This document shows positions 11,819-48,669 of a stretch of 56,645 bases of DNA, piece after piece. A program made the translations under genes and the position numbers. Positions within the stretch are counted from its first letter, which is position 1. Each line of letters opens with the position of its first letter. The stretch is taken from the NCBI GenBank assembly GCA_000996035.1, contig LBYH01000003.1:1-56645 (forward strand), read 5' to 3'. This stretch comes from Parcubacteria group bacterium GW2011_GWA2_40_143 (GTDB lineage Bacteria; Patescibacteriota; Minisyncoccia; UBA9983). Below the pieces are notes generated by a model. That model searched no databases, was not told the DNA's origin, and was given only the letters and a program-made list of their open reading frames with translations.

Positions 11819-12235
11819 CTACAATATTTTGTCTATTGATCTCATAAAGTCGCCAAAATCAGTAATATCTTTTCTGGCGTATTCCAATATTTTTTTGTCT
11901 TCCATCTCCCAATATCGGTGAATTAACTTATTTCTAAATTTGGACATTTTTTTCATTTTCTGCGCCAGACCGTTGTTTAAAATTTTTTCTTCACCCAAAA
12001 GTTCAAAACATTCTCCGAAGCCGGACACGCCCTTGTTTAATTTTTTCGCGGCCACATGGACGCAAACTCCGCCCACGGCTTCTATCGCCTGCAGGAGATA
12101 ATACTTCAGAGCCGCGATGTTGCTTTTCCTGTTCCAAAACTCATTGTCGTCAGACAACGGCAGCTCTTTAGCGGAAGCCACCGCCTCGTTTATCTCCGCG
12201 AATCTCTGTTTGATTTTATCTTTATCCAGATCCAT
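11819..12235 (-). CDS. hepT: HEPN-domain (DUF86) toxin HepT
   Basis: Rx4H motif in FRNKLIHRYWEMED. About 138 aa, starting 1 nt after the upstream nucleotidyltransferase gene ends. Confidence 0.8.
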   Translation of the reverse strand: MDLDKDKIKQRFAEINEAVASAKELPLSDDNEFWNRKSNIAALKYYLLQAIEAVGGVCVHVAAKKLNKGVSGFGECFELLGEEKILNNGLAQKMKKMSKFRNKLIHRYWEMEDKKILEYARKDITDFGDFMRSIDKIL

Positions 12236-12236
12236 T

Positions 12237-12674
12237 TTAATTATTCGGCACTAATTCTTTAAGTGATAAAAGTGAAATGTATTCATTGGCGACGGCGTCC
12301 AAAGAAACGTTCTCCACCACACGCGAAAGCAAATCGTTATTCTTAGCAAACAAAACTTCTCCTGTCCTGAAAACATTGTTCAAAAAAGCGCTTGGCGCGA
12401 AGTTTAAAATCTTGACATCAATATCATCCATAGACAATCCGCATTTTTTCGCAATTTTTTCCGATAATCTTATCTCTTCGTCAAAAACTTCTTCTTTAAC
12501 GATTTTGTTGAAGTAAACGCCAACGTCAATATCTCTGAATGAAGGAGAACCTAAAAAAGAGCCGAAGATATAGGTAAAAATAATTCTTTCATCCTCGGAA
12601 AGAATTATTTTAATGCCATCCATTATTTTTTGCCTGTCGTTTTGGCTTATTGATAAATACTCTTCTTTATTCAT
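12237..12674 (-). CDS. mntA: minimal nucleotidyltransferase antitoxin MntA
   Basis: GSFLGSPSFRDIDVGVY fits the GSx10DxD motif. It is paired with the DUF86 gene. Confidence 0.8.
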   Translation of the reverse strand: MNKEEYLSISQNDRQKIMDGIKIILSEDERIIFTYIFGSFLGSPSFRDIDVGVYFNKIVKEEVFDEEIRLSEKIAKKCGLSMDDIDVKILNFAPSAFLNNVFRTGEVLFAKNNDLLSRVVENVSLDAVANEYISLLSLKELVPNN

Positions 12675-30406: not shown

Positions 30407-30868
30407 ATGAAGAAATTGGTTTTGGTTTTTTCGTTAGTTGTTTTTTTCACCGGCTGTGCTTCCTCGCAGGCGCGCCAGCAACAAACTTATGTTGCTCCGC
30501 CTTTAGTTGTCCAGTGCAGTCAATGCTGGACGAGGTTCACACCGCCGACCGATAACACTGGCACCCCTTGGACGCAATGTCCAAAATGTGGCGCTAATGT
30601 TTTAGTGCCGGCAGAAAATATGAGAAATTCCTCATCCTCGCAAAGTTACAAAAGCGGTGGAGAGGAAGAGGTTCCCTTCCCACACCATTTGTTCAACCGC
30701 CCACGCGGTTACAGTGAGACTGAGTCCACCCGCGTGCGGCGTGGATATACAAATGAAAGTTGGGGGAAAAATTGGTATTCCTCCAACTACGGTTGGGTGA
30801 ATTACAGTCAAAGGAAAACTTACCGCGTGCGAACATACAACACGCGGAAACATTATCATTGGCCTTAA
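30407..30868 (+). CDS. lipoprotein with zinc-ribbon-like CxxC...CxxC motif
   Basis: Lipobox FFTGC. CSQCWTRF...CPKCGANV. The tail is rich in W, Y, R and N. Confidence 0.6.
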   Translation: MKKLVLVFSLVVFFTGCASSQARQQQTYVAPPLVVQCSQCWTRFTPPTDNTGTPWTQCPKCGANVLVPAENMRNSSSSQSYKSGGEEEVPFPHHLFNRPRGYSETESTRVRRGYTNESWGKNWYSSNYGWVNYSQRKTYRVRTYNTRKHYHWP

Positions 30869-30896
30869 CAATAAGGCCAATGCCCCTAAAAAACAA

Positions 30897-30930
30897 AGCG
30901 TCGGTTTTTCTTAAAACCGACGCTTCTTTA
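30897..30930 (+). terminator. intrinsic terminator after the lipoprotein gene
   Basis: AGCGTCGGTTTT / AAAACCGACGCT stem followed by TCTTTATTT. Confidence 0.65.
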
Positions 30931-30959
30931 TTTGCACCAAGGTTAAACCTTGGTGCAAA
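30931..30959. repeat. orphan palindrome TTTGCACCAAGGTTaaACCTTGGTGCAAA
   Basis: 13-bp perfect arms. It shares the CAAGGTTnAACCTTG core architecture with the palindrome family at 38958, 39661 and 41411. Confidence 0.8.
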
Positions 30960-31894
30960 CTCCTTTCTCTCGCCCGTCTGTGCGCCGAACGAGCGAAGCG
31001 GTGCGCTTCGTCTCGCGTTCTGAGTAAAATATTTTTTGAAGCTTGCGCCAGCCTCTTTAATTTTAAATAATCTATATTCTTTTTTATTTTCCTCGCCATT
31101 CTCAAACACCACCATGGAGCCGTAAGTTTCTCTGCCGGCAAAGTGGGAAATGTCATATCCCTCTATTCTGGAAGAATCGCCAAGAGGAATTTCTTCTTCT
31201 CTGATGATAAGAGCCGCGTCTTTTAAATATCTTAGAGCCTTGGCTTTCTTCGGACTCTCTTTGGCAAGTTTATTCAAAAGACGTTTCTTTTTTCCACTCA
31301 AAAAAAGAACAAGATTGCTCACTATTTTTTTATAATCCTTTTTGGAAATCTCTCCGGAGCAGACTCCCGGACAAAGACCGATTTGGCGATGAAAGCACGG
31401 TTTCAAATTCGGCTTAGGTCCTCCGTCCAAACTGTAAGGAAAAATTTTTCTTATAATTCCAAAACATCGCCGGCAATTTTTGAGCTACCATACGGCCCGA
31501 AAATTTTAAAACCGGATGACGGAAATTTTTTCAGCTCTCTCGCGCGCGCCACTATAGGCGCCGGATAATCGCCTTTGTCTAAAACTATATAAGAAAAGGA
31601 GCGATTGTCTTTATCTTTTACATTATATTTCGGCCAATGCTTTTTAATTAAATTCGCCTCAAGCACCACCGAGTCTATTACCGTTTCCGTTTCAATATGT
31701 TTTAAACGAGAAGCTTGATTTATCATCTCTCGCTTGCTCTCCGAAGTATCGGCTCTGAAGTAACTCGCCACTCTGCTTCTTAAAGACGTGGCTCTGCCCA
31801 CGTATAAAATCACTCCTTTCTTATCAAGGAACATATAAACGCCCGACGCGTTAGGAAGTTTTTTAATAATAACCTGATTTAATATTATTGACAT
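30960..31894 (-). pseudogene. uvrC: excinuclease UvrC remnant (frameshifted, internally deleted, 3'-truncated)
   Basis: GIY-YIG domain in ORF 31451-31894 (GVYMFLDKKGVILYVGRA). A Cys-rich segment and the RIEGYDISHFAGRETYGSMVVF...YRLFKIK segment follow in another frame (to about 31040). RDEAHRFA..HRRAR appears in a third frame (ORF 30911-31156). The (HhH)2 end is absent. Confidence 0.8.
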
Positions 31895-31907
31895 TCGATG
31901 TCGATAG
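31888..31907 (+). repeat. hairpin family A copy (TTGACATTCGATGTCGATAG)
   Basis: GACAT-tcg-ATGTC stem-loop, 10 nt downstream of the RAYT-1 stop. Confidence 0.8.
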
Positions 31908-31916
31908 ATAAGGAAA

Positions 31917-32600
31917 CTATTCCAAAACTATTTTTCCCATATCATTTATATCCATATCTTTAACCCATTGTTTTATACTGTTCATATATTCCTTTTCCCC
32001 TCCAAAAAAGTCTAACAAAAAATTTCTTTGAGTTACTGATGGAAAATTATTTTTGCCGATATAATCAAGATGACTGCTCCAGCGATAAGAATTTATGAAA
32101 TCAACAACTTTTTTAAAATCTTTTATCTTTCTTTCTCGCCACTCCGGAGCGACAAAATCCAAAGGATTAAGGTGGATATAATAAGGCAAGTGTATAAAAT
32201 GCGCTTCGTCTTTAATAAGAATTTTTTTATGGCGACCTTCAAACAAAGCGCCGGACCGGTCATATTTTATGTTGAAATATTTTGAATAACCCATATTTAT
32301 TTTCTTCATAAATTTTGGAATACCACCATTAACTTTGGAGCTAACTAAAAGATGATAGTGATTGTCCATTAAACAAAAAGCATGTATGACAACGAGCAAT
32401 TTCCTCTTTTTTTTCTTATATTGACGTCGAACGTCGATAGTATTTGGTTTTTCAAAGAAATAAACATTATTAACAACATTGTCTTGATCATTGAATTCAA
32501 ACAAATTATGGACAAAACGAAATCTGTCCTTGTCATTAGTAAAAATTTTTCTTTTATCAACACCTCGATTTACTATATGATAAATCTCCATGCTTACCAT
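31917..32600 (-). CDS. HUH-Y1 transposase-like protein (RAYT / IS200-like, COG1943-type), copy 1
   Basis: YHIVNRGVDKRKIF N-terminus, HUH motif MDNHYHLLV, and Tyr motif YYIHLNPLDF. Confidence 0.75.
   Translation of the reverse strand: MVSMEIYHIVNRGVDKRKIFTNDKDRFRFVHNLFEFNDQDNVVNNVYFFEKPNTIDVRRQYKKKKRKLLVVIHAFCLMDNHYHLLVSSKVNGGIPKFMKKINMGYSKYFNIKYDRSGALFEGRHKKILIKDEAHFIHLPYYIHLNPLDFVAPEWRERKIKDFKKVVDFINSYRWSSHLDYIGKNNFPSVTQRNFLLDFFGGEKEYMNSIKQWVKDMDINDMGKIVLE
32421..32440 (+). repeat. hairpin family A copy inside the RAYT-1 coding sequence (TTGACGTCGAACGTCGATAG)
   Basis: GACGT-cga-ACGTC stem-loop, translated in frame as NTIDVRRQY. Confidence 0.7.
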
Positions 32601-32610
32601 TCTACATCTA

Positions 32611-32654
32611 TTGACGTTCGATGTCGATAGGATTACCGATGTCGATAGGATTAC
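32611..32654 (+). repeat. hairpin family A copy plus an exact 18-bp tandem duplication
   Basis: TTGACGTTCGATGTCGATAG is followed by a perfect tandem CGATGTCGATAGGATTAC x2 (32619-32636 and 32637-32654), 11 nt upstream of the RAYT-1 start. Confidence 0.85.
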
Positions 32655-34381
32655 AAATATTTTTTCAAATATTTGCCTGTCGGGGATTTTGGATTCTTGG
32701 CCACGTCTTCCGGCGCGCCTACCGCCACCACTCTGCCGCCACCCTCGCCCCCTTCCGGACCGAGATCTATTATATAGTCGGCGCTTTTTATAACATGCAT
32801 GTTGTGCTCTATAAGTAAAACGGAATTGCCTTTTTCCACAAGTTTATTAAGGACTTTAAGCAAAAGCTCAATATCATAATAGTGCAAACCGACGGTAGGT
32901 TCATCCATAATATACAAAGTTTTTTTGCCGAGCGGGCATGTAAGTTCTCTGGCCAGCTTTATTCTCTGAGCTTCGCCGCCGGAGAGGGTGGTGGCGCTCT
33001 GACCTATCTCCAGATAACCAAGACCGACTTCTTCCAAAACTTTCAACCTGTCGGTAATAAGATACAAGCCGTCAAAAAATTTTCCAGCTTCGCTTATTTC
33101 CATCTTGAGCACGTCGCTTATGTTCTTGCCTTTATGTTTTACATCAAGAGTTTCTTATTAAATCTTTTGCCACGGCATACCTCGCATTCCACCGTTACTG
33201 GCGCGAGAAAATGCATTTCTATGAGATTAAAGCCGGCGCCCTCGCAAGCCTCGCATCTGCCGCCTCCACGATTGGAAGGCACGTTAAAAGAGAATCTGGA
33301 AGCGCTATATCCCCTTTCTCTGGCATCAGGCAAAGACGCGTAGAAGTCTCTTATATAATTGAAGTGCCGGTATAAGTAGCCGGATTGGATCGCGGACTTC
33401 TGCCTATGGGAGACTGATCCACCATTACAAGCTTGTCTATGTACTCATTGCCGAAGAGTTTGCTGAGATGTTCAAGAGGAGCGTTTATGCGCGACTTTAT
33501 ACGCTGAAGATTCTTGTATAACACATCATGCAAAAGCGTTGACTTGCCACTGCCGGACACGCCGGAAATGCAAACAAGCTTTCTTAAAGGTATTTCCACA
33601 TCCACGTTTTTAAGATTGTTCGCTCGCGCGCCGATAAGTTTTATCTTTTCGGTCGTCTTCGTTCTCCTGCTTGGCACCTCTATTTTTCTCTTGCCTTTAA
33701 GATAATCCAAAGTAAGAGAAGTGATTCGGCCGCTTGGATTTACCAACTTGTTCGTTTCGCCAGTGGCCACCACTTCGCCGCCGTTTTTGCCGGCAAACGG
33801 TCCGAGATCTACCAAAAAGTCTGAAGCAAAAATAGTTTCTTCATCATGCTCAACCACTATCACCGTATTGCTCTGGTCGCGCAAAGATTTTAGCGTGCCA
33901 ATGAGCCGCTCGGTATCCCGTTCATGCAAGCCGATTGTGGGTTCATCAAGCACATAGAGCGTGCCGGAAAGTTTGGTGCCTATTTGCGAAGCCAAACGTA
34001 TCCTCTGAGCCTCGCCGCCGGAAAGAGTTTCCGCTTCTCTTTCCATCGTCAGATAATCAAGTCCGAAACTTCTTGAATGCTTTTCCCGTTAATTTTTACG
34101 GACAGACCTTCCGGCTTGAGTCTTTTGCCATCGCAATCAGGACATACTTCGTTTAAAAACAAATCAGTTTTACCTAAGCCTTTACAAGTGGGGCGAGCGT
34201 ACGGCGAAAGCGACTCTATGTATCTGCGTTGCCCCTCAGCGAAGATGGTATCAAAAGCCAACGATGATTTGCCCGATCCGGATACTCCGGTAAAAACCAC
34301 CAATTTGTTTTTGGGAATTTCCAGACTTATATTTTTGAGATTATGCACTCTCGCGCCTTTTATAATAATTTTATCCAACAC
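32651..34381 (-). pseudogene. uvrA: excinuclease UvrA remnant (at least 3 frame breaks plus a large internal deletion)
   Basis: Four consecutive ORF fragments. 34049-34381 has the first Walker A ([15 protein letters not shown]), then jumps to CPDCDGKRL. 33351-34046 has LSGGEAQRIRLA and the second Walker A. 33139-33333 has the zinc finger [20 protein letters not shown]. 32651-33112 has LSGGEAQRIKLA...GPEGGEGGG. Together they total about 560 aa, against about 940 aa for an intact UvrA. Confidence 0.85.
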
Positions 34382-38957: not shown

Positions 38958-38990
38958 CCCCAATGTCAAGGTTCAACCTTGACATTGGGG
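38958..38990. repeat. palindrome family B copy (CCCCAATGTCAAGGTTcAACCTTGACATTGGGG)
   Basis: 16-bp perfect arms with central C at 38974, 24 nt upstream of the RAYT-2 ATG. Confidence 0.9.
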
Positions 38991-39013
38991 ACTGTTAAAA
39001 ATAAAATAGAATC

Positions 39014-42303
<3,290 letters not shown>

Positions 42304-42306
42304 ATT

Positions 42307-42825
42307 TTATCTACTTGAATCAATTTTCCTCTGAGACACGGATGTCTGCAAATTGAGACTTGATTTTAATTTCTGCTTGGAATCGGTAACACCACCAACA
42401 TAAATGGTTACAAACGGCTGACCGTCGCTTGGACCAGCTCTTCTCACGGTAAAAATAAGACTACTGACATTTACATCTTGGGATGTTATCCGAGAGTTGT
42501 CTCTCATTATGTATTTTTGCTGGTTATCTTCTTTCAGCTCATATGTAACTGATTTATCGTCCACATCAGTAAAACTAAAAACCGAACAAGGCGAAGGAGA
42601 ACAGATATAACCACGACCTTCTCTTATATCTCTTGTCATCATTTCTATCGTAAAAGACATGTTATCGCTCACGTTTCTGAGCGACTCGCTTTTTTTCTGA
42701 ATGTCGGAGATATTTAAAAACGCCCCCATGGAAATCGTCATTACGACGGCGAAAAGACCCAGAGCGACAATAAGCTCTATTAGAGTGAAGCCGGCGTTTG
42801 GATTTTGTTTATTTCTTATCTCCAT
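42307..42825 (-). CDS. type IV pilus minor pilin (PilW/GspJ-like)
   Basis: Class III signal NAGFTLIELIVALGLFAVVM. Confidence 0.65.
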   Translation of the reverse strand: MEIRNKQNPNAGFTLIELIVALGLFAVVMTISMGAFLNISDIQKKSESLRNVSDNMSFTIEMMTRDIREGRGYICSPSPCSVFSFTDVDDKSVTYELKEDNQQKYIMRDNSRITSQDVNVSSLIFTVRRAGPSDGQPFVTIYVGGVTDSKQKLKSSLNLQTSVSQRKIDSSR

Positions 42826-43406
42826 TTATATATATTATTTTGCAATTTTATTTCCCGTGGCCCATATTTGCCTGTCCAAGAAACTTTCACTTCTATCACC
42901 GCTTCATACTCATCGTCGCCATTAAGATTTTTTGATATTTTAACGATCCTTTTAAAACCGGAGTCATTGCCATCTACGTATTGATAACCATTATCATCGC
43001 TACGATTCAGATTAGGACATTCTGAAACACACTCCGTCACGGTATCGTTTGCAGCATCTATGTAACAACTTTTTCCATCGAGACATTCATCAACAAGCCC
43101 GTAAAGCCAGTCCACCGGTTCCGTGGCATCTATATTTTTAAGCAAGTTTGAATCCCTCACGTTTCTCGCGTATTCAAACGGCTCTTGCGCCAACTCAAAG
43201 GCCACCAGCTGATCCTGCGCCACGGAAGCGGCTGAAATATTTTTTATGGCAAAAGTCATCGGCCCGGCTATGGCAGTAGTTAAAATTGCCACCGCTACGA
43301 GCGTTTCCACCAGCGTAAACCCCCGCTTCGCTCCAGCGAAGCTCACACCAACTTTTGATAAAGTAGGTGTGGGGGTGAAGCCTTTTTTGTATTGTTTTCT
43401 AAACAT
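42816..43406 (-). CDS. type IV pilus minor pilin (PilV/GspI-like)
   Basis: KRGFTLVETLVAVAILTTAIAG. Confidence 0.65.
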   Translation of the reverse strand: MFRKQYKKGFTPTPTLSKVGVSFAGAKRGFTLVETLVAVAILTTAIAGPMTFAIKNISAASVAQDQLVAFELAQEPFEYARNVRDSNLLKNIDATEPVDWLYGLVDECLDGKSCYIDAANDTVTECVSECPNLNRSDDNGYQYVDGNDSGFKRIVKISKNLNGDDEYEAVIEVKVSWTGKYGPREIKLQNNIYKWR

Positions 43407-43407
43407 A

Positions 43408-43989
43408 TTATTCTATGGAAATTTGACCATTCAAATAAATTTTTATATCTTTAGAAATTTTATCATTGGGAGCCGCGATGGTAACGATGGCATAATCGTT
43501 ACTGCCACTCCCTGAACTATCTGTAATACTAGCCATCGGATTGCTTCTAGGATATACGATGTTTATCTCTCCAGTATCATTACATCCTGATGAACATAAT
43601 TGCAACCTAGATATGGTATCGCCAGTGGTTATCATAAAAGTATTGATTTCTTCTCCCTCATCATAAAGGTTATTTCTCACTCCCTCTTCTCCTTTGTCGG
43701 CAAAAAGCGTAAAAGTATTTCCTGTTTTAAAATTTATTCCGTAGGCGGGAAACTTTCCGTCAAGTTCTTTGATTGAAAGAGCGTTCACCTGAGCCTCGCG
43801 CACCGCCAAAGCGATATCATTACTCGTCCTTCTTATAGCCATTCGTTGATTGAATTCCGGATAGCTGGCAAAGACCATCATGTTTATTACGGTCAAGATG
43901 GACACAGAAACCATAAGCTCAATCAAACTGAAGCCATTCGCCTTTCGGCTAAAAATAAAATTCAAAAAATCAAACCTAAAAAATTTCAT
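43408..43989 (-). CDS. type IV pilus minor pilin (GspH/FimT-like)
   Basis: ANGFSLIELMVSVSILTV. The start is moved to MKFFRF (43989) so that it no longer overlaps pilD. Confidence 0.6.
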   Translation of the reverse strand: MKFFRFDFLNFIFSRKANGFSLIELMVSVSILTVINMMVFASYPEFNQRMAIRRTSNDIALAVREAQVNALSIKELDGKFPAYGINFKTGNTFTLFADKGEEGVRNNLYDEGEEINTFMITTGDTISRLQLCSSGCNDTGEINIVYPRSNPMASITDSSGSGSNDYAIVTIAAPNDKISKDIKIYLNGQISIE

Positions 43990-44012
43990 TGCTTTTATTA
44001 TATCATTTTTTA

Positions 44013-44810
44013 TCAGAACAAAAAGCTGATCATCTTTTCTCCCCAAAACAAAGAAATAATCGTCCCTAAAACCATAAAAGGCCCGAAAGCGATACTGCTT
44101 TTCAAGCCATATTTATTTTTACTTAGATATAACAGCAAAATACCAACAATCGCTCCAATCCAAAAAGCCAAAGTGATGGCGGCGATGCCGTTAGTTATTC
44201 CAAGAAGCCAGCCGATGCCGAGAGCCAGCTTGGCATCGCCAAAGCCCATCCATCGCCCGCCGGAAAAAAACCAAAGGGAAGCAAAAAAAATGAATAATAT
44301 AAGACCGGCCGATAAACCGCTAAAATTAAAATTTTCAATTATCAATTTCCAATTTTCAAAATTGAATAAAGACAAGAAACTAAGGCCGATAAACGGATAC
44401 ACAAAAATATCGGGAATTATCTGATGACGATAATCATAGACGGCGATAAGAATCAGAAAGGCCGCAACAGCCAAAAGATAAAAGATTTTTGCAAAATTGA
44501 AAATTGAAAATTCATTGAAAACTGGCAATTGAAAATTGAAAATCAAAAGAAAGACCAACCCTGTTAATATTTCCACCGCGGGATATTGCAACGATATTTT
44601 ACTTTTGCATTCGCGGCAACGGCCTTTTTGAATCAAGAAACTGAAGATTGGAACGAGTTCTATCCACTTAAGCTTCTTGCCGCAGGAAAAACATTTAGAG
44701 CCGCCGGAAACAACAGATTCGCCGGTGCCAAGCCGAAGAGTCACCACGTTAAGAAAACTGCCAATAATGGCGCCGAAACAAAAAACAATAAATAACTCTG
44801 GATATAACAT
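44013..44810 (-). CDS. pilD: prepilin peptidase (A24 family)
   Basis: N-terminal Zn-binding CFSCGKKL...CRECKSKIS, the DYRHQIIPD catalytic Asp region, and GFGDAKL. Confidence 0.85.
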   Translation of the reverse strand: MLYPELFIVFCFGAIIGSFLNVVTLRLGTGESVVSGGSKCFSCGKKLKWIELVPIFSFLIQKGRCRECKSKISLQYPAVEILTGLVFLLIFNFQLPVFNEFSIFNFAKIFYLLAVAAFLILIAVYDYRHQIIPDIFVYPFIGLSFLSLFNFENWKLIIENFNFSGLSAGLILFIFFASLWFFSGGRWMGFGDAKLALGIGWLLGITNGIAAITLAFWIGAIVGILLLYLSKNKYGLKSSIAFGPFMVLGTIISLFWGEKMISFLF

Positions 44811-44827
44811 ATTTTTTTATTATAGAA

Positions 44828-44863
44828 GTGCATCGACGGCATCGACGTCGGACTTCGACGCAC
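44828..44863 (+). repeat. hairpin family C copy (with partial internal duplication)
   Basis: GTGCATCGACG-GCATCGACGTCGGACTTCGACGCAC. Confidence 0.8.
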
Positions 44864-44892
44864 ACGCACATTATAAATCAAACTTTTCCACA

Positions 44893-44920
44893 AGTGCATC
44901 GACGTCGGACTTCGACGCAG
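44893..44920 (+). repeat. hairpin family C copy (AGTGCATCGACGTCGGACTTCGACGCAG)
   Basis: 8-bp arms TGCaTCGA / TCGACGCA with loop CGTCGGACT, followed by GTATAAT and the RAYT-3 ATG 16 nt later. Confidence 0.85.
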
Positions 44921-44935
44921 GTATAATGAAACTAT

Positions 44936-45685
44936 ATGAATAGAAAAATCCCTTTTGTCGTTGGTGAATATTATCATACGTACAATAAAACAGTTTTTGG
45001 CATCAACGAATTTAGTGACAGAGATAATGCTTATAAACTAGCCCAAACTTTCTTGCTAGCAAATTCTACAACATCTAGTCAAGCGTTTGATTATCTTAGA
45101 AATGATAGGCATCCTATGCTCAAAAATGCAATTGAAATAAAAAATTCTGGAGAAAAACTGACAGACATCTTGTGTTATGTGATAATGCCAAATCATTACC
45201 ATTTATTATTAAGAGAAATAAAAGAGGGAGGAATAACTGATTTTCTAAGAAGAAGCAGCACATCTATAGCAAAATATATCAATACCAAAAAAGAAAGGCG
45301 CGGCCCATTATTTGAAGGTAATTTTAAATCAAAGCACATAGATTCAAATACTTATCTACTCCACTTGTCATTATACATACACCTTAATCCTTTAGATTTT
45401 ATCACTAACAAAAACTGGCGAGAAAATAAAATGGAAGATTGGGGAAACATCTTTAAAAAACTTACTGATTATCGCTGGTCAAGCTTAAGAAGCTATTTAA
45501 ATGACAATGACACCGCGTCGACGTCGGACTTCGACGCAATAATTTCCGGGGAAAAAATTATAAAGAATCAGTTTAATGATCTTGGCAACGATAATGATTA
45601 TGGTAATTATGGTAATTTTCTTAAGGAATGGGCGACTGGCTTAGGTGAAACAAATAACGATAATATTGAAAAATTCGCATTTTGA
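44936..45685 (+). CDS. HUH-Y1 transposase-like protein (RAYT / IS200-like, COG1943-type), copy 3
   Basis: EYYHTYNK, HUH motif MPNHYHLLL, and Tyr motif LYIHLNPLDF. It contains an in-frame family C hairpin (TASTSDFDA). Confidence 0.7.
   Translation: MNRKIPFVVGEYYHTYNKTVFGINEFSDRDNAYKLAQTFLLANSTTSSQAFDYLRNDRHPMLKNAIEIKNSGEKLTDILCYVIMPNHYHLLLREIKEGGITDFLRRSSTSIAKYINTKKERRGPLFEGNFKSKHIDSNTYLLHLSLYIHLNPLDFITNKNWRENKMEDWGNIFKKLTDYRWSSLRSYLNDNDTASTSDFDAIISGEKIIKNQFNDLGNDNDYGNYGNFLKEWATGLGETNNDNIEKFAF
45514..45538 (+). repeat. hairpin family C copy inside the RAYT-3 coding sequence
   Basis: CGCGTCGACGTCGGACTTCGACGCA is translated as TASTSDFDA, at a position where copies 1 and 2 have no corresponding residues. 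Confidence 0.85.
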
Positions 45686-45694
45686 TTGATTGAA

Positions 45695-45723
45695 AGTGCG
45701 TCGACGTCGGACTTCGACGCAGG
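45695..45723 (+). repeat. hairpin family C copy downstream of RAYT-3
   Basis: AGTGCGTCGACGTCGGACTTCGACGCAGG. With its flanks it forms a ~32-bp direct repeat, with one mismatch, of 44892-44923. Confidence 0.85.
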
Positions 45724-45727
45724 TAGT

Positions 45728-45781
45728 GCAAAGAAACACAAAACACCCCGCTTTGGGCTGGGTGTTTTGTCGCTTCTTTGC
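45728..45781. terminator. long imperfect hairpin between convergent RAYT-3 and pilA
   Basis: GCAAAGAAACACAAAACACCCC pairs with GGGTGTTTTGTCGCTTCTTTGC. No clear U tract on either strand. Confidence 0.45.
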
Positions 45782-45794
45782 GTTTCCGGCGAGA

Positions 45795-46265
45795 TTACGG
45801 TTTTACGTCGTAGATTGCATCAGTCGTAACGCTGGTGAAATCAGCAGCGCTACCGGCTCCATTCGGACATCCTGTACCGGCTGTACCGGCCACGGCATCA
45901 ACATCTGTCTGCAACGCTGCGTGGTTTGCATCCTCCAAAGTAGCCCCTAAGTGATAGCTGGTGCATCCGGCATTTAAGGCGGCGTATTGATACGCTCCTC
46001 CTCCAACAGGATCGGTAGGAATAACCGAGATATAGCCTGGTGTTACAAGATTGGCAGCAGTAAGCGCGGACGGATACCCTCTCTTGGCATCAAAATAAAG
46101 CTCCAAAGCTATCTGTAATTGCTTAATGTCTGAAACCCTTCTGGCGTCTCGTGATTTTGTTCTGGCGCTGTTGAGCGAAGCCAAAACAACTGAAGACAAA
46201 ATACCGATAATGGCGATAACAACAAGCAACTCAATCAAGGTAAAACCTCTTTTCTTATTTTGCAT
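45795..46265 (-). CDS. pilA: type IV major pilin
   Basis: KRGFTLIELLVVIAIIGILSSVVLASLNSAR is the class III signal plus the conserved N-terminal helix. Confidence 0.85.
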   Translation of the reverse strand: MQNKKRGFTLIELLVVIAIIGILSSVVLASLNSARTKSRDARRVSDIKQLQIALELYFDAKRGYPSALTAANLVTPGYISVIPTDPVGGGAYQYAALNAGCTSYHLGATLEDANHAALQTDVDAVAGTAGTGCPNGAGSAADFTSVTTDAIYDVKP

Positions 46266-46389
46266 TTTTTTTAAAACTAAAATTTATTAATTTTTTAAAC
46301 ATCGACCGTTTTTAATGTCTTATAGCTATATAATACTACAGATATTATTTTAAGCAAAAAACACTGTGGATAACCCCCGCATCTTTATT

Positions 46390-47598
46390 TTAAATACCGG
46401 CCGTAATATTATATATCGGCCCGAGGATTGAAACGAGCAACAAGCCGACAGAACCGCCAAGCACCACGATCATTACCGGTTCTATAAGACCGACGAGAGT
46501 TTCCACCACATTATCCACTTCTCTTTTGTAGAATTTACCTAGAGTTTTGAGCATAAAAGCCAGCTTTCCCGTTTTTTCACCCGTGCGAATCATCTGCACC
46601 ACAAGGAGAGAAATTTCGTCATATTTATCCAAAGCATCAGAGATGGGGCTTCCGCCCTTCACTTTCTCCGCCGCGTCAAAAAGAATTTTTTCATAAATTT
46701 TATTCCCCACCACGTCAGCGGAAATCTCAAGTGCCTTAACGGCCGATACGCCGCTAGACAAAAGCGTTTCCATGTTATCCGTAATTCTGGCGAGGTAAAA
46801 CTTTTTGTACAAATCACCTATAAAAGGAACGCCGAGCTGGAAGCTTGAAAAACTTATCCTGCCGGATTCCGTTTTAATATATCGCCACAGAAAGACAAAG
46901 CCTACCGCTAAAGCGATTAGGAAAAACACGCCGAAATCTTTAAACACGTTACTCACGCCTATTACGATTTTAGTGTAAAACGGAATATCTTGCCCCACTT
47001 CGGTAAGAATAGCCGTAAGCTTGGGAATCACAAAGGTAAGCATCAAGAACATTACGGCAAAGAAAGCGCCTACCACGAATATAGGATAAACCAAAGCGTT
47101 TTTAGCTTTGCTGACAAGCTCGTATGATCTCTCAAGGTGATCGGCCAAAGATTCAAAAATCTCTTCCAACTTGCCGGATTCTTCGCCGGATCTGACCATA
47201 TTTACGTAAAATTTGGAAAAGACATCCGGATGTTTGCTCATGGCGACGGAAAACGTATTGCCGCCTCTTATGTCTTCCACCACTTCAGAAAGACTTGTCT
47301 TCAATTTGGCATTTTTGGTCTGAGAAGAAAGAAGCTGAAACGATTCAAGAATGGAAACTTTCGCCTCAAAGAGCGTGGCCAATTGACGAGAAAGGATGAC
47401 GATATCCTTGGTTCTTACCCTATTAAAGAAAGAAAACCACGAACTGGTAAAAGCCGTTTTCCCTTCGGCCGGTTTTATGGACGTGATGATTAGACCTCTG
47501 TTTTGGAGAGAGTTTATGGCGATACCCATATTGGCCGCTTCTATGGAGCCGGATTGGGACTCGCCCTGCATCGTGGAAGCTATGTAATTATATAACAT
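46390..47598 (-). CDS. pilC: type IV pilus platform protein (GspF family)
   Basis: Two GspF repeats (FSRQLATLFEAKVSILESF and LARITDNMETLLSSGVSAVKAL) and 3 TM segments. Confidence 0.9.
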   Translation of the reverse strand: MLYNYIASTMQGESQSGSIEAANMGIAINSLQNRGLIITSIKPAEGKTAFTSSWFSFFNRVRTKDIVILSRQLATLFEAKVSILESFQLLSSQTKNAKLKTSLSEVVEDIRGGNTFSVAMSKHPDVFSKFYVNMVRSGEESGKLEEIFESLADHLERSYELVSKAKNALVYPIFVVGAFFAVMFLMLTFVIPKLTAILTEVGQDIPFYTKIVIGVSNVFKDFGVFFLIALAVGFVFLWRYIKTESGRISFSSFQLGVPFIGDLYKKFYLARITDNMETLLSSGVSAVKALEISADVVGNKIYEKILFDAAEKVKGGSPISDALDKYDEISLLVVQMIRTGEKTGKLAFMLKTLGKFYKREVDNVVETLVGLIEPVMIVVLGGSVGLLLVSILGPIYNITAGI

Positions 47599-47604
47599 AT
47601 TATT

Positions 47605-48669
47605 TTATATAAGCGCCTCAAGACCCATGGGATTAAGGGATTGATTAAGGGCGTCTTTCATATTTATTTCTCCGGCGCGCACAAGCTCCGCCAAAGACCT
47701 GTTTAAACTTATCATCCCTTGCTCGTAGCCGGTTTCTATCACCATATCAAGTTCGTGAGTCCGTCCTTCTCTTATAAGTGTTCTCACTGCCGAATTATTT
47801 AGCATCAGTTCGTAAGCGGGTATCCGGCCGCCGGAGACTCTGGACACAAGACGCTGCGAGAATACGCCGAGCAGCACGCTGGCAAGCTGGGCTCTTATCT
47901 GATTTTGCTGATTAGGAGGGAAAGAATCTATGATACGATCTATGGTTTGAGCGGCATTGTTTGTATGGAGAGTGGAAAAAATCAAATGACCGGTCTCGGC
48001 AGCCGTAACGGCGGTGGAGATTGTTTCAACGTCTCGCATCTCGCCTATGAGCGCCACGTTTATATCTTGCCTGAACATAGAACGCATAGCTGAACCGAAG
48101 CTCATGGTGTCGTATCTTACTTCTCTCTGATCCACGATGGATTTGTCTTGGGTGAAAATATATTCAACAGGATCTTCTACGGTAATGATATGCTTGGATT
48201 TTGTTCTGTTTATATGATCTATCATTGAGGCCAAGGTTGTGGACTTGCCGTGACCGATAGGCCCCACTACCAAAAAGAAACCTTGTTTTCTGTCAGCAAA
48301 CTCAGTAAGTATTTCCGGCAAATTAAGCTCTTTAAGAGTCTTTATACTGGTGGGAATGTTTCTTAAGGCCGCACCGAGAAATCCTTTTTGATAAAAGGCG
48401 TTTACCCTGAATCTTGTTTTGTCTTCATGAGCGTAAGACAAGTCTATTTCTTTATTTTCTTTTAGACTTTTTTCTTCATCATCATTTAAAAATGTTTTTA
48501 TCAAGCCTTCCGTATCAGACGGAGTGAGAACCGGCTCGTTTACGAGCGGGATGAGTTCACCGGATATTCTTATTGTGGGATGTCTGCCCACGGTAAGATG
48601 AAGGTCTGAAGCGCCTTCTTTGATAGTCGTCAAAATCAACTCTTTTAATTTTTTGGAATAATCGGTCAT
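47605..48669 (-). CDS. pilT: twitching motility (retraction) ATPase
   Basis: ASDLHL, Walker A GPIGHGKSTT, EDPVEY, and GHLIFSTLHTN. 354 aa. Confidence 0.9.
   Translation of the reverse strand: MTDYSKKLKELILTTIKEGASDLHLTVGRHPTIRISGELIPLVNEPVLTPSDTEGLIKTFLNDDEEKSLKENKEIDLSYAHEDKTRFRVNAFYQKGFLGAALRNIPTSIKTLKELNLPEILTEFADRKQGFFLVVGPIGHGKSTTLASMIDHINRTKSKHIITVEDPVEYIFTQDKSIVDQREVRYDTMSFGSAMRSMFRQDINVALIGEMRDVETISTAVTAAETGHLIFSTLHTNNAAQTIDRIIDSFPPNQQNQIRAQLASVLLGVFSQRLVSRVSGGRIPAYELMLNNSAVRTLIREGRTHELDMVIETGYEQGMISLNRSLAELVRAGEINMKDALNQSLNPMGLEALI

Follow-up and report, generated by a model that had tools for sequence, protein, structure and literature searches.

A probable REPtron-type module with its own hairpins in the pilA-pilD gap of a Parcubacteria genome

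Introduction

RAYTs, the tyrosine transposases associated with repetitive extragenic palindromes (REPs), have been called domesticated transposases, and their cellular role is hard to pin down, with REP targets that number in the hundreds. The REPtron of Escherichia coli, with its nuclease TnpA_REP, is reportedly treated in Ton-Hoang 2012. Here, we analyze a gene of this kind, RAYT-3, together with the palindromic hairpins that surround it (family C), in a stretch of 56,645 nucleotides (nt) of contig LBYH01000003.1 from Parcubacteria group bacterium GW2011_GWA2_40_143. This whole stretch, hereafter the window, has a G+C content of 40.9%, and RAYT-3 lies in it between a pilin gene (pilA) and the prepilin peptidase gene pilD.

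Several described systems are close to this locus. A REPtron is a RAYT (TnpA_REP) gene flanked by its cognate REPs, as in E. coli yafM/TnpA_REP (PDB 4ER8; Nunvar 2010, PMC2817692; PMC6006769, PMC3733652). Among the TnpA_Y1 proteins, subclass 2.4 occurs in Cyanobacteria and Bacteroidetes with the motifs NH[IFV]H and YIxNNP, and is associated with GTAG 'double foot' REPs and with insertions between HUH and the catalytic Y (PMC6006769). In-frame REPs are known in the tnpAREP genes of this subclass, where they were read as peripheral (Quentin et al. 2018, PMC6006769), and intragenic REPs in general were already known (PMC3733652). Subclass 2.1, also named TIRYT or Group 1 RAYTs of Bertels, has the motifs NH[YF]H and Y[IV]HLNP, a tail 'SS' and a length of about 238 aa; its members are reported either to lack REP-like hairpins or to have long terminal inverted repeats with GGGGWSAS (PMC6006769, PMC3733652, PMC5581495).

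The locus resembles a REPtron in encoding a Y1 HUH nuclease with Y-x-x-x-NP whose best structural match is 4ER8, in having this gene bracketed by a lineage-specific palindromic hairpin (starting at 44838, 44895 and 45697, with a further one at 45514 inside), and in the presence of several diverged paralogues per genome, each with its own hairpin family and at a low identity that is unlike that of insertion sequence (IS) copies. It differs from a REPtron because its hairpins lack the GT[AG]G foot, are not dispersed (none elsewhere in the 56 kb, and only the locus contig in the source assemblies) and have all four copies on one strand instead of in inverted REPIN pairs; moreover, the protein is about 85 aa longer than the 165 residues of 4ER8 and scores under the NCBIfam equivalog cut-off. 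Like subclass 2.4, it has a cognate hairpin within its own nuclease gene, in a peripheral variable region and with the frame kept, but in Patescibacteria the inserts are placed near codon 57, ahead of HUH, or near codon 193, past Y, and the motifs match subclass 2.1. Indeed, PNHYH, YIHLNP and YRWSS fit the latter, and flanking repeats are few in both; unlike in subclass 2.1, each flank of RAYT-3 is a short palindrome in direct orientation, with neither GGGGWSAS nor long terminal inverted repeats. Finally, IS200 (IS200/IS605 family) is also a 0.7-0.9-kb unit with one Y1 gene and subterminal same-strand hairpins at both ends, and has neither inverted terminal repeats nor target duplication. Yet, IS200 TnpA has about 150 aa, a Y-x-x-x-Q motif and several near-identical copies, whereas the RAYT genes described here are single, diverged and syntenic.

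We consider it probable that positions 44826-45725 form a REPtron-type module with its own cognate hairpins (two upstream, one in frame and one past the stop codon), which occupies a polymorphic gap of about 85 nt and has been vertically inherited at this site within one Parcubacteria subclade. The action of the nuclease, the hairpin promoter, the in-frame insertion and the upkeep of the copies are parts of this reading that we infer.

Results

Four hairpin copies surround and interrupt RAYT-3

We searched the whole window for the family C pattern, TGCRTCGACGTCGGACTTCGACGCA, allowing up to three mismatches and using 100 shuffles as control. The pattern occurs four times on the + strand (44838-44862, 44895-44919, 45514-45538 and 45697-45721) and nowhere else in the window, and the shuffles give a chance expectation of 0. 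An earlier note on this DNA had described five units, all on the same strand around RAYT-3. The common strand is confirmed, but the units are really four: the 'doubled copy' of that note is a single one, U1, laid out as AAGTGCATCGACG, GCATCGACG and TCGG... in succession, in which GCATCGACG is duplicated exactly (9 nt). The stretch that follows U1 (TATAAA...AAACT) resembles the one that follows the second upstream copy, U2 (TATAAT.GAAACT). This points to a duplication of the whole left end (hairpin, -10 box and AAACT) at a distance of 57 nt, in which the spacer at 44864-44891 would be a degenerate duplicate. The gene is bracketed by a direct repeat of 32 nt, formed by U2 and the downstream copy D, whose members are 97% identical with a single mismatch, much as had been proposed (Table 1).

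Under DNA folding parameters, D and the internal copy form a stem of 8 or 7 bp, one C.T mismatch, two more pairs and a 3-nt CGG loop, with energies of -9.5 kcal/mol (z -2.6) for D and -8.4 kcal/mol (z -2.1) for the internal copy. The 8-bp stem with a 9-nt loop given previously is a conservative reading of the same sequence, but it misses the two additional pairs and the shorter loop, and the upstream copies carry an A.C mismatch. The case for the hairpins rests on recurrence and comparison, since single-copy energies are unremarkable. The 5' flanks read AAG before TGC or ACC before GCG; no GT[AG]G guide tetranucleotide was found at the 5' foot of the family C copies, and GTAG occurs only 3' of the downstream one. 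A role of these hairpins as intrinsic terminators was ruled out by the lack of a T-run.

Table 1. Positions of the RAYT-3 module, its parts and the neighboring pilus genes in the window
Feature	Positions	Strand	Remarks
Pseudopilins	41782-44046	minus	
PilD prepilin peptidase (left neighbor)	44013-44810	minus	A24_N_bact and Peptidase_A24 domains
pilD -10 box TATAAT	44818-44823	minus	7 nt before the pilD ATG; compared with the empty sites L091, L092 and L095
Whole RAYT-3 module	44826-45725		900 nt; hairpin copies and RAYT-3 gene
Outer upstream hairpin copy (U1)	44826-44863	+	left arm with exact 9-nt tandem duplication (GCATCGACG x2); abuts the pilD -10 box
Spacer with TATAAA...AAACT	44864-44891	+	seen on aligning U2 with U1 after removal of the duplication in the latter
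Inner upstream hairpin copy (U2)	44892-44923	+	left member of the 32-nt direct repeat AAGTGCRTCGACGTCGGACTTCGACGCAGGTA
Candidate sigma-70-like promoter	44899-44927	+	-35 TCGACG in the left hairpin arm, 17-nt spacer, -10 TATAAT
RAYT-3 gene	44936-45685	+	249 aa; Y1 HUH nuclease of the TnpA_REP class; HUH, YIHLNP and YRWSS tail motif
Internal hairpin copy, in frame	45514-45538	+	RAYT-3 residues 193-201 (TASTSDFDA)
Downstream hairpin copy (D)	45694-45725	+	right member of the 32-nt direct repeat; best-folding copy; begins 9 nt past the stop codon
Pilin terminator-like hairpin	45738-45770	minus	14-nt arms, 93% complementary; T-rich tail on the minus strand
Type IV pilin (right neighbor)	45795-46265	minus	N_methyl motif
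PilC	46390-47598		
PilT-like ATPase	47605-48669		
Response regulator and PilB-like ATPase			further genes listed after the PilT-like ATPase

RAYT-3 encodes a predicted nuclease of the TnpA_REP class

The HUH motif of RAYT-3 is H87-Y88-H89 (in MPNHYHLL) and its catalytic tyrosine is Y147 in YIHLNP (Y-x-x-x-N-P, class 2); both are invariant across 36 aligned homologues, and Y147 lies within helix 138-150 of the predicted model. This model, built by AlphaFold2 (AF2) from the alignment, has a pLDDT of 84. Its top Foldseek match is 4ER8, the E. coli TnpA_REP bound to REP (E 2.6e-6, TM-score 0.67 on the target), followed by ISDra2, IS608, IS200 and Sulfolobus TnpA. The only and best NCBIfam match is REP_Tyr_transpos (39.6 bits, E 4.3e-10), a profile search of PDB sequences returned marginal matches only (ISDra2 TnpA, E about 0.01), and Pfam detected neither a DnaA_C-like nor a helix-turn-helix domain in the tail of the protein.

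More than 330 homologues of RAYT-3 were found, with lengths of 230-250 aa. All those with a source name are labeled Patescibacteria, most have a precomputed PF01797 match, and the protein of a sister strain (P0001) is 99% identical to RAYT-3. Our search of the literature on RAYT or IS200 in Patescibacteria or the candidate phyla radiation (CPR) found no description of this family, and RAYT-3 is a member of a large, apparently undescribed Patescibacteria branch of class 2 TnpA_Y1. The window contains two paralogues, RAYT-1 (39014-39682) and RAYT-2 (31917-32600, minus strand), with tblastn identities to RAYT-3 of 37% and 35%, respectively (31-33% in a MAFFT alignment). Their Y1_Tnp scores are 46.2 and 36.5 bits, and each is bracketed by its own, different palindrome.

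The module fills a gap that is empty in several relatives

We compared the state of the pilA-pilD gap among eight sampled PilD relatives (62-89% identity). The gap is empty in four of them (70-171 nt; L090, L091, L092 and L095) and filled in the other four, by a RAYT on the opposite strand in two (L088 and L094) and by an MntA/HepT pair in two (L086/87, the closest relative at 89%, and L093). The order in the empty sites is pilin stop, about 25 nt, terminator, TGTGGTATTATAAA and ATG, and in the window it is pilin stop, terminator, the 900-nt module, CTATAAT and ATG. Without positions 44826-45725 the gap would be 84 nt long, like the empty sites, and these comparisons support the module being an insertion relative to the common state. 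The proposal of the earlier note that the module was inserted into an otherwise contiguous pilus locus is thus supported.

The pilin terminator-like hairpin marks the right edge of the insertion site, and homologous terminators are found at the empty sites. Two nt (44824-44825) separate the left edge of the module from the pilD -10 box, and it follows that the module replaced everything upstream of this box. Genes of the RAYT-3 clade (59-64% identity) are found at the same site and in the same orientation in L001, L006, L007, L008, L088 and L094, whose PilD proteins are 53-68% identical, and for this reason the insertion is old, not recent. More distant RAYTs (31-39% identity) also fill the pilA-pilD gap in other lineages, including one in opposite orientation (L074) that groups with RAYT-1 in a rough neighbor-joining (NJ) tree. 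Hence, judging from these sequences, the gap is probably also a recurrent landing site.

The pilin terminator of relatives (AAATCCCCGACGGCCGTCGGGGATTT; L091 2943-2970, L092, L095, L088 2163-2190, and downstream in L006/L094) has a core CCGAC...GTCGG, which is also present in the RAYT hairpins of L010, L014, L015, L040 and L071. Other G+C-rich palindromes are found in the pilA-pilD gap of L086 and L090. Terminator hairpins may be linked to the choice of this landing site. The window itself has, on the minus strand, a toxin-antitoxin pair made of HepT (11819-12235) and a MntA-like nucleotidyltransferase (12237-12674), of the same kind as the pair in the gap of L086/L087 and L093.

Each RAYT locus appears to have a private palindrome with a shared apex

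We surveyed 80 further loci obtained from a scan of metagenome contigs. Among about 80 loci, 69 have an upstream hairpin with 8 bp or more that lies no further than 100 nt from the start. It is repeated at the stop in 40 of the 69 and inside the open reading frame (ORF) in 28 of the 69; about 40% of the surveyed loci have an in-frame copy at one of two hot spots: position A, +142 to +202 (about codon 57, before HUH), or position B, +567 to +605 (C-terminal tail). Identity (over 27 nt) and pairing were computed in the 48 loci with a single-center palindromic upstream hairpin. Hairpins are 90% identical within a locus, against 47.5% between upstream copies of different loci. Watson-Crick pairing in the upstream copies is 96-100% at distances 2-6 and 8-10 from the center and 83% at distance 7, with three to four pair types at several of the stem positions. 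The apex, GA-N-GT-Y-[G/C]-R-AC-N-TC, is conserved in all clades, and family C fits it (GACGTCGGACTTC). Across the roughly 80 Patescibacteria loci, each RAYT thus appears to have a private palindrome with a shared apex.

The locus L001 (64% identity) gives a close example. Its gene is divergent next to pilD, followed by the pilins, pilC and pilT, and its hairpin CCCTCATCGACGTCGGACGTCGATGAGGG occurs three times: it runs into GGTATAAT at -50, is read in frame (PSSTSDVDE) at +567 and recurs at +13 past the stop. Relative to family C, all copies have both arms altered at the two outermost stem pairs (TG..CA to CT..AG), and a change on both arms of the outer stem is likewise seen in L088, L006 and L094. 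In many loci the copies do not share one central base (CGG or CCG), and L001 and L002 differ in it despite coding for the same protein; this suggests palindrome flipping or template switching. The same variation rules out a strict direct or a strict inverted orientation as a rule of the family.

Extra solo copies of the hairpin were found more than 110 nt from the gene, and up to a few kb away, in eight loci. They include L010 (-1013, -236), L034/L036 (-588, -559), L082 (-2864, -2662, -2133), L078 (-3693), L020 (+669) and L022 (+840). Such copies near RAYT genes indicate a low-level local spread of hairpins.

The internal copy is in frame and also found in close orthologues

The internal copy is translated as T193-ASTSDFD-A201, the TASTSDFDA at residues 193-201 that had been read before. 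The linker in which it lies, between WSSL..[FY]L and IISG, has 13 residues in RAYT-3, 10-16 in its nearest relatives and 7 in most of 35 orthologues. The nearest relatives have the peptides SSTSDVDE, SSMSDVDE or SSTPDFDE at the same place, and the DNA that encodes them is the local, co-varied hairpin, always in the same reading frame. Clean inserts of 8 or 9 codons were seen at position A in P0092 and at position B in P0007, and L007, which is adjacent to pilD at 59% identity, has no internal copy. Two claims of the earlier note need revision here. The peptide was said to have no equivalent in the paralogues, but both of those in the window align residues there, without a 9-residue gap, and the sequence is extra only with respect to the orthologues (13 vs 7). 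A hit of the gene by its own element that left the frame open is a reasonable account of the origin of the extra linker sequence; it is not a private recent accident, since the closest orthologues have an in-frame hairpin at the same place. The family C hairpin has no stop codon in any of the six frames, and keeping the frame open therefore required only an insert length divisible by three. Residues 192-195 have pLDDT below 50 and are in a loop of the C-terminal tail in the AF2 model, in which position A is also a loop, between helices.

Internal and flanking copies of family C match at 24 of 25 positions in spite of genes that are about 40% diverged, which argues that the internal copy is held at the DNA level, not at the protein level. 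All three hairpin copies of L006, and likewise of L094, have the non-pairing apical change GACGT to GACAC, a pattern that points to copying between sites. Homogenization appears to be incomplete, because in both the window and L007 the upstream copies have A where the downstream one has G (GCATCGA vs GCGTCGA).

The inner upstream hairpin runs into a candidate promoter

The upstream copy had been noted to run straight into GTATAAT, and we find TATAAT at 44922-44927 after the second upstream copy. In a promoter scan, TCGACG-17 nt-TATAAT matches the consensus at 10 of 12 positions. The -10 box ends 8 nt before the ATG of RAYT-3, and its overlap with the repeat is limited to the terminal GGTA of the latter, i.e., to the first two bases of the box. 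It is plausible that the repeat supplies the promoter of RAYT-3. A TATAAT-like box (at most one mismatch) is present within a few bases of the hairpin end in 10 of the 14 surveyed RAYT-3-clade loci; among these ten, box and ATG are 6-9 nt apart in eight, and the remaining two have distances of 13 and 15 nt. The kept spacing between hairpin, box and ATG suggests a hairpin-embedded promoter and a leaderless mRNA across the clade.

Family C hairpins appear to be confined to one locus

The downstream hairpin region of family C (61 nt) matches one contig per run in four source-sample assemblies (7-22x depth), and this contig is the locus itself, with four copies. A scan of the GTDB representative genomes, a set without the source genome, gave only two chance matches, in G+C-rich genomes (Mycolicibacterium and Vulcanimicrobiota). 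A second copy of the whole module was found neither in the window nor among the source-sample contigs. Over 43800-46800, contigs from four partly matching runs had no joint skipping the module, only low-complexity noise inside pilD; this is weak evidence because contigs cannot show rare variants. Family C hairpins thus appear private to the locus, unlike the genome-spread repeats of classical RAYT systems, and the pattern of single, diverged, syntenic genes with private hairpins looks RAYT-like rather than IS-like.

The paralogous modules and the pilus locus

RAYT-1 is bracketed by a near-perfect palindrome of 28-33 nt, CCAATGTCAAGGTT[C/G]AACCTTGACATTGG, at 38960-38992 and 39660-39690. The downstream copy supplies the last codons and the stop of RAYT-1, which overlaps by 17 nt, within the palindrome, the convergent gene of a NAD-dependent DNA ligase (39666-41765), including the stop of the latter. 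A third copy, 1.7 kb from RAYT-1 (41410-41438), is in frame within the adenylation domain of LigA, which Pfam splits into two stretches.

RAYT-2 (region 31886-32660) lies between the 3' end of a uvrA-like gene and the start of a uvrC-like gene with GIY-YIG. Its hairpin, CTATCGACATCGAAYGTCAATA, is found upstream and downstream of the gene, and a variant is read in frame as NTIDVRRQYK at approximately codons 55-64, a place with a 5-residue insert in the alignment of paralogues. The left arm of the upstream hairpin has an exact 18-nt tandem duplication (GTAATCCTATCGACATCG x2), of the kind seen in the left arm of RAYT-3. The uvrC-like gene downstream of RAYT-2 (30693-31894, minus strand) is made of separate ORFs, one of 147 aa with GIY-YIG and then one of 245 aa, instead of a single protein of about 600 aa, and may represent a frameshift or a split gene.

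The runs holding the pilA-pilD region are mostly groundwater metagenomes, and the closest PilD relative (89% identity) is annotated as Candidatus Terrybacteria. The coding region of PilD has, at 44330-44545, low-complexity AATTGAAAATTGAAAATT repeats that encode FNFQL/FNFEN-type stretches. Contigs of related populations omit 128-144 nt inside pilD (joints at 44348-44503); the peptidase thus seems to have a variable insert.

Discussion

The module of RAYT-3 is largely an ordinary variant of the known REPtron layout, and one that is widespread in Patescibacteria. By analogy with the action of E. coli TnpA_REP on REPs, the encoded nuclease would bind and cut the family C hairpins as single-stranded DNA. 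The inner upstream hairpin and the adjoining TATAAT would serve as the promoter of RAYT-3, producing a leaderless mRNA, and occupation of the hairpin could feed back on the expression of the gene. The in-frame copy may have begun as the insertion of a hairpin into a tolerant surface loop, and the copies in one locus might be kept alike by nuclease-mediated or template-switch copying.

Several points weigh against this interpretation. Binding and cleavage, the use of the promoter and homogenization are all argued by analogy with TnpA_REP. RAYT-3 scores under the equivalog cut-off of REP_Tyr_transpos (39.6 vs 80 bits) and under the gathering threshold of Pfam Y1_Tnp (PF01797; 19.3 vs 23 bits), and U1 and U2, with an extra A.C mismatch (GCATCGA), fold weakly (z about -1.2 to -1.4). 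Template switching can keep perfect palindromes without selection, and covariation alone is no proof of function. The absence of dispersed family C copies relies on the 56-kb window and on contig mapping, whose sensitivity is uncertain for matches of about 25 nt. Finally, RAYTs adjacent to pilD occur in at least four places of the rough NJ tree, and L074 has the opposite orientation, such that the sequences do not fully tell vertical inheritance with losses from repeated insertion at a hot spot.

The in-frame hairpin might be more than a tolerated passenger: a selected, working part upon which the nuclease acts in its own gene, either for autoregulation or to excise, in a programmed manner, the segment (183 nt, 61 codons) that lies between the internal copy and the downstream one. 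Internal copies occupy only two places over clades that are 30-40% identical, and they have zero to four mismatches relative to their flanking copies while hairpins differ between loci. The apical change of L006 and L094 is carried by all three copies, the internal and terminal copies in genes of the L006/L094 type are in the same frame and encode the same peptide, and the upstream copy overlaps the -35 and spacer region. All this would fit a working part. Nevertheless, many orthologues without an internal copy keep intact genes (L007, L009, L011, L014 and others), both sites are predicted loops where insertions may simply be tolerated, and the insertion point within the linker varies among orthologues. 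In L001 the internal and downstream copies are 160 nt apart, which is no multiple of three, no rearranged forms were seen in the contigs, and the analogous insertions of subclass 2.4 were read as peripheral and neutral by Quentin et al. (PMC6006769). We thus regard a selected role of the internal copy as unlikely. The same doubt extends to a broader proposal, in which promoter, in-frame and terminal hairpins would make a conserved self-directed circuit in a Patescibacteria-wide RAYT family, whose nuclease would work mainly on its own gene (by autoregulation or programmed single-strand editing) instead of spreading repeats. We hold this doubtful as well; if true, it would be a minimal RAYT system showing RAYT action without a genomic REP population.

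Could the module instead be an autonomous IS200-type insertion sequence that recently transposed into the pilA-pilD gap, with end hairpins on one strand? Same-strand hairpins bracketing a Y1 gene without target duplication are formally the anatomy of IS200, some relatives have empty sites, and there are three paralogous modules within 56 kb. However, orthologues at 59-64% identity in the same site and orientation imply an ancient arrival, the paralogues in the window are only 35-37% identical (tblastn) and their hairpins are all different, and neither family C outside the locus nor a second module was found in the window or the source-sample contigs. The protein, with 249 aa and Y-x-x-x-NP, departs from the TnpA of IS200, with about 150 aa and Y-x-x-x-Q (PMC6006769 Table 1), and the contigs had no excision joint, although this is a weak test. 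A recent IS200-type arrival is therefore quite improbable. Even harder to sustain, and in our view very improbable, is that the protein has no relation to the palindromes, which would be DNA of a generic regulatory or structural kind (terminators, insulators or cruciforms) and occur with its gene incidentally. The downstream copy lies just past the stop, like a terminator stem, and the palindromes are G+C-rich islands in A+T-rich DNA. Yet, no T-run follows them, dozens of unrelated loci repeat one locus-specific sequence before, within and after the gene, and the apex motif is conserved through the whole protein family.

If a REPtron-type module is indeed the correct reading, the Patescibacteria family would be a stripped-down RAYT: one gene, three to four private hairpins and no visible repeat population, with a conserved apex and a lineage-specific stem. 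This layout would make specificity, the co-evolution of protein and hairpin, and a possible self-regulation easy to test. For the annotation of CPR genomes, such 'transposase' genes are mostly syntenic genes, not active IS elements, and in-frame hairpin peptides such as TSDFD explain variable loops in them and in at least one housekeeping gene of the window (LigA). Finally, the pilA-pilD landing site, whether occupied by a RAYT or by MntA/HepT, is directly upstream of the pilD -10 box, and its occupation could affect the expression of pilus genes.

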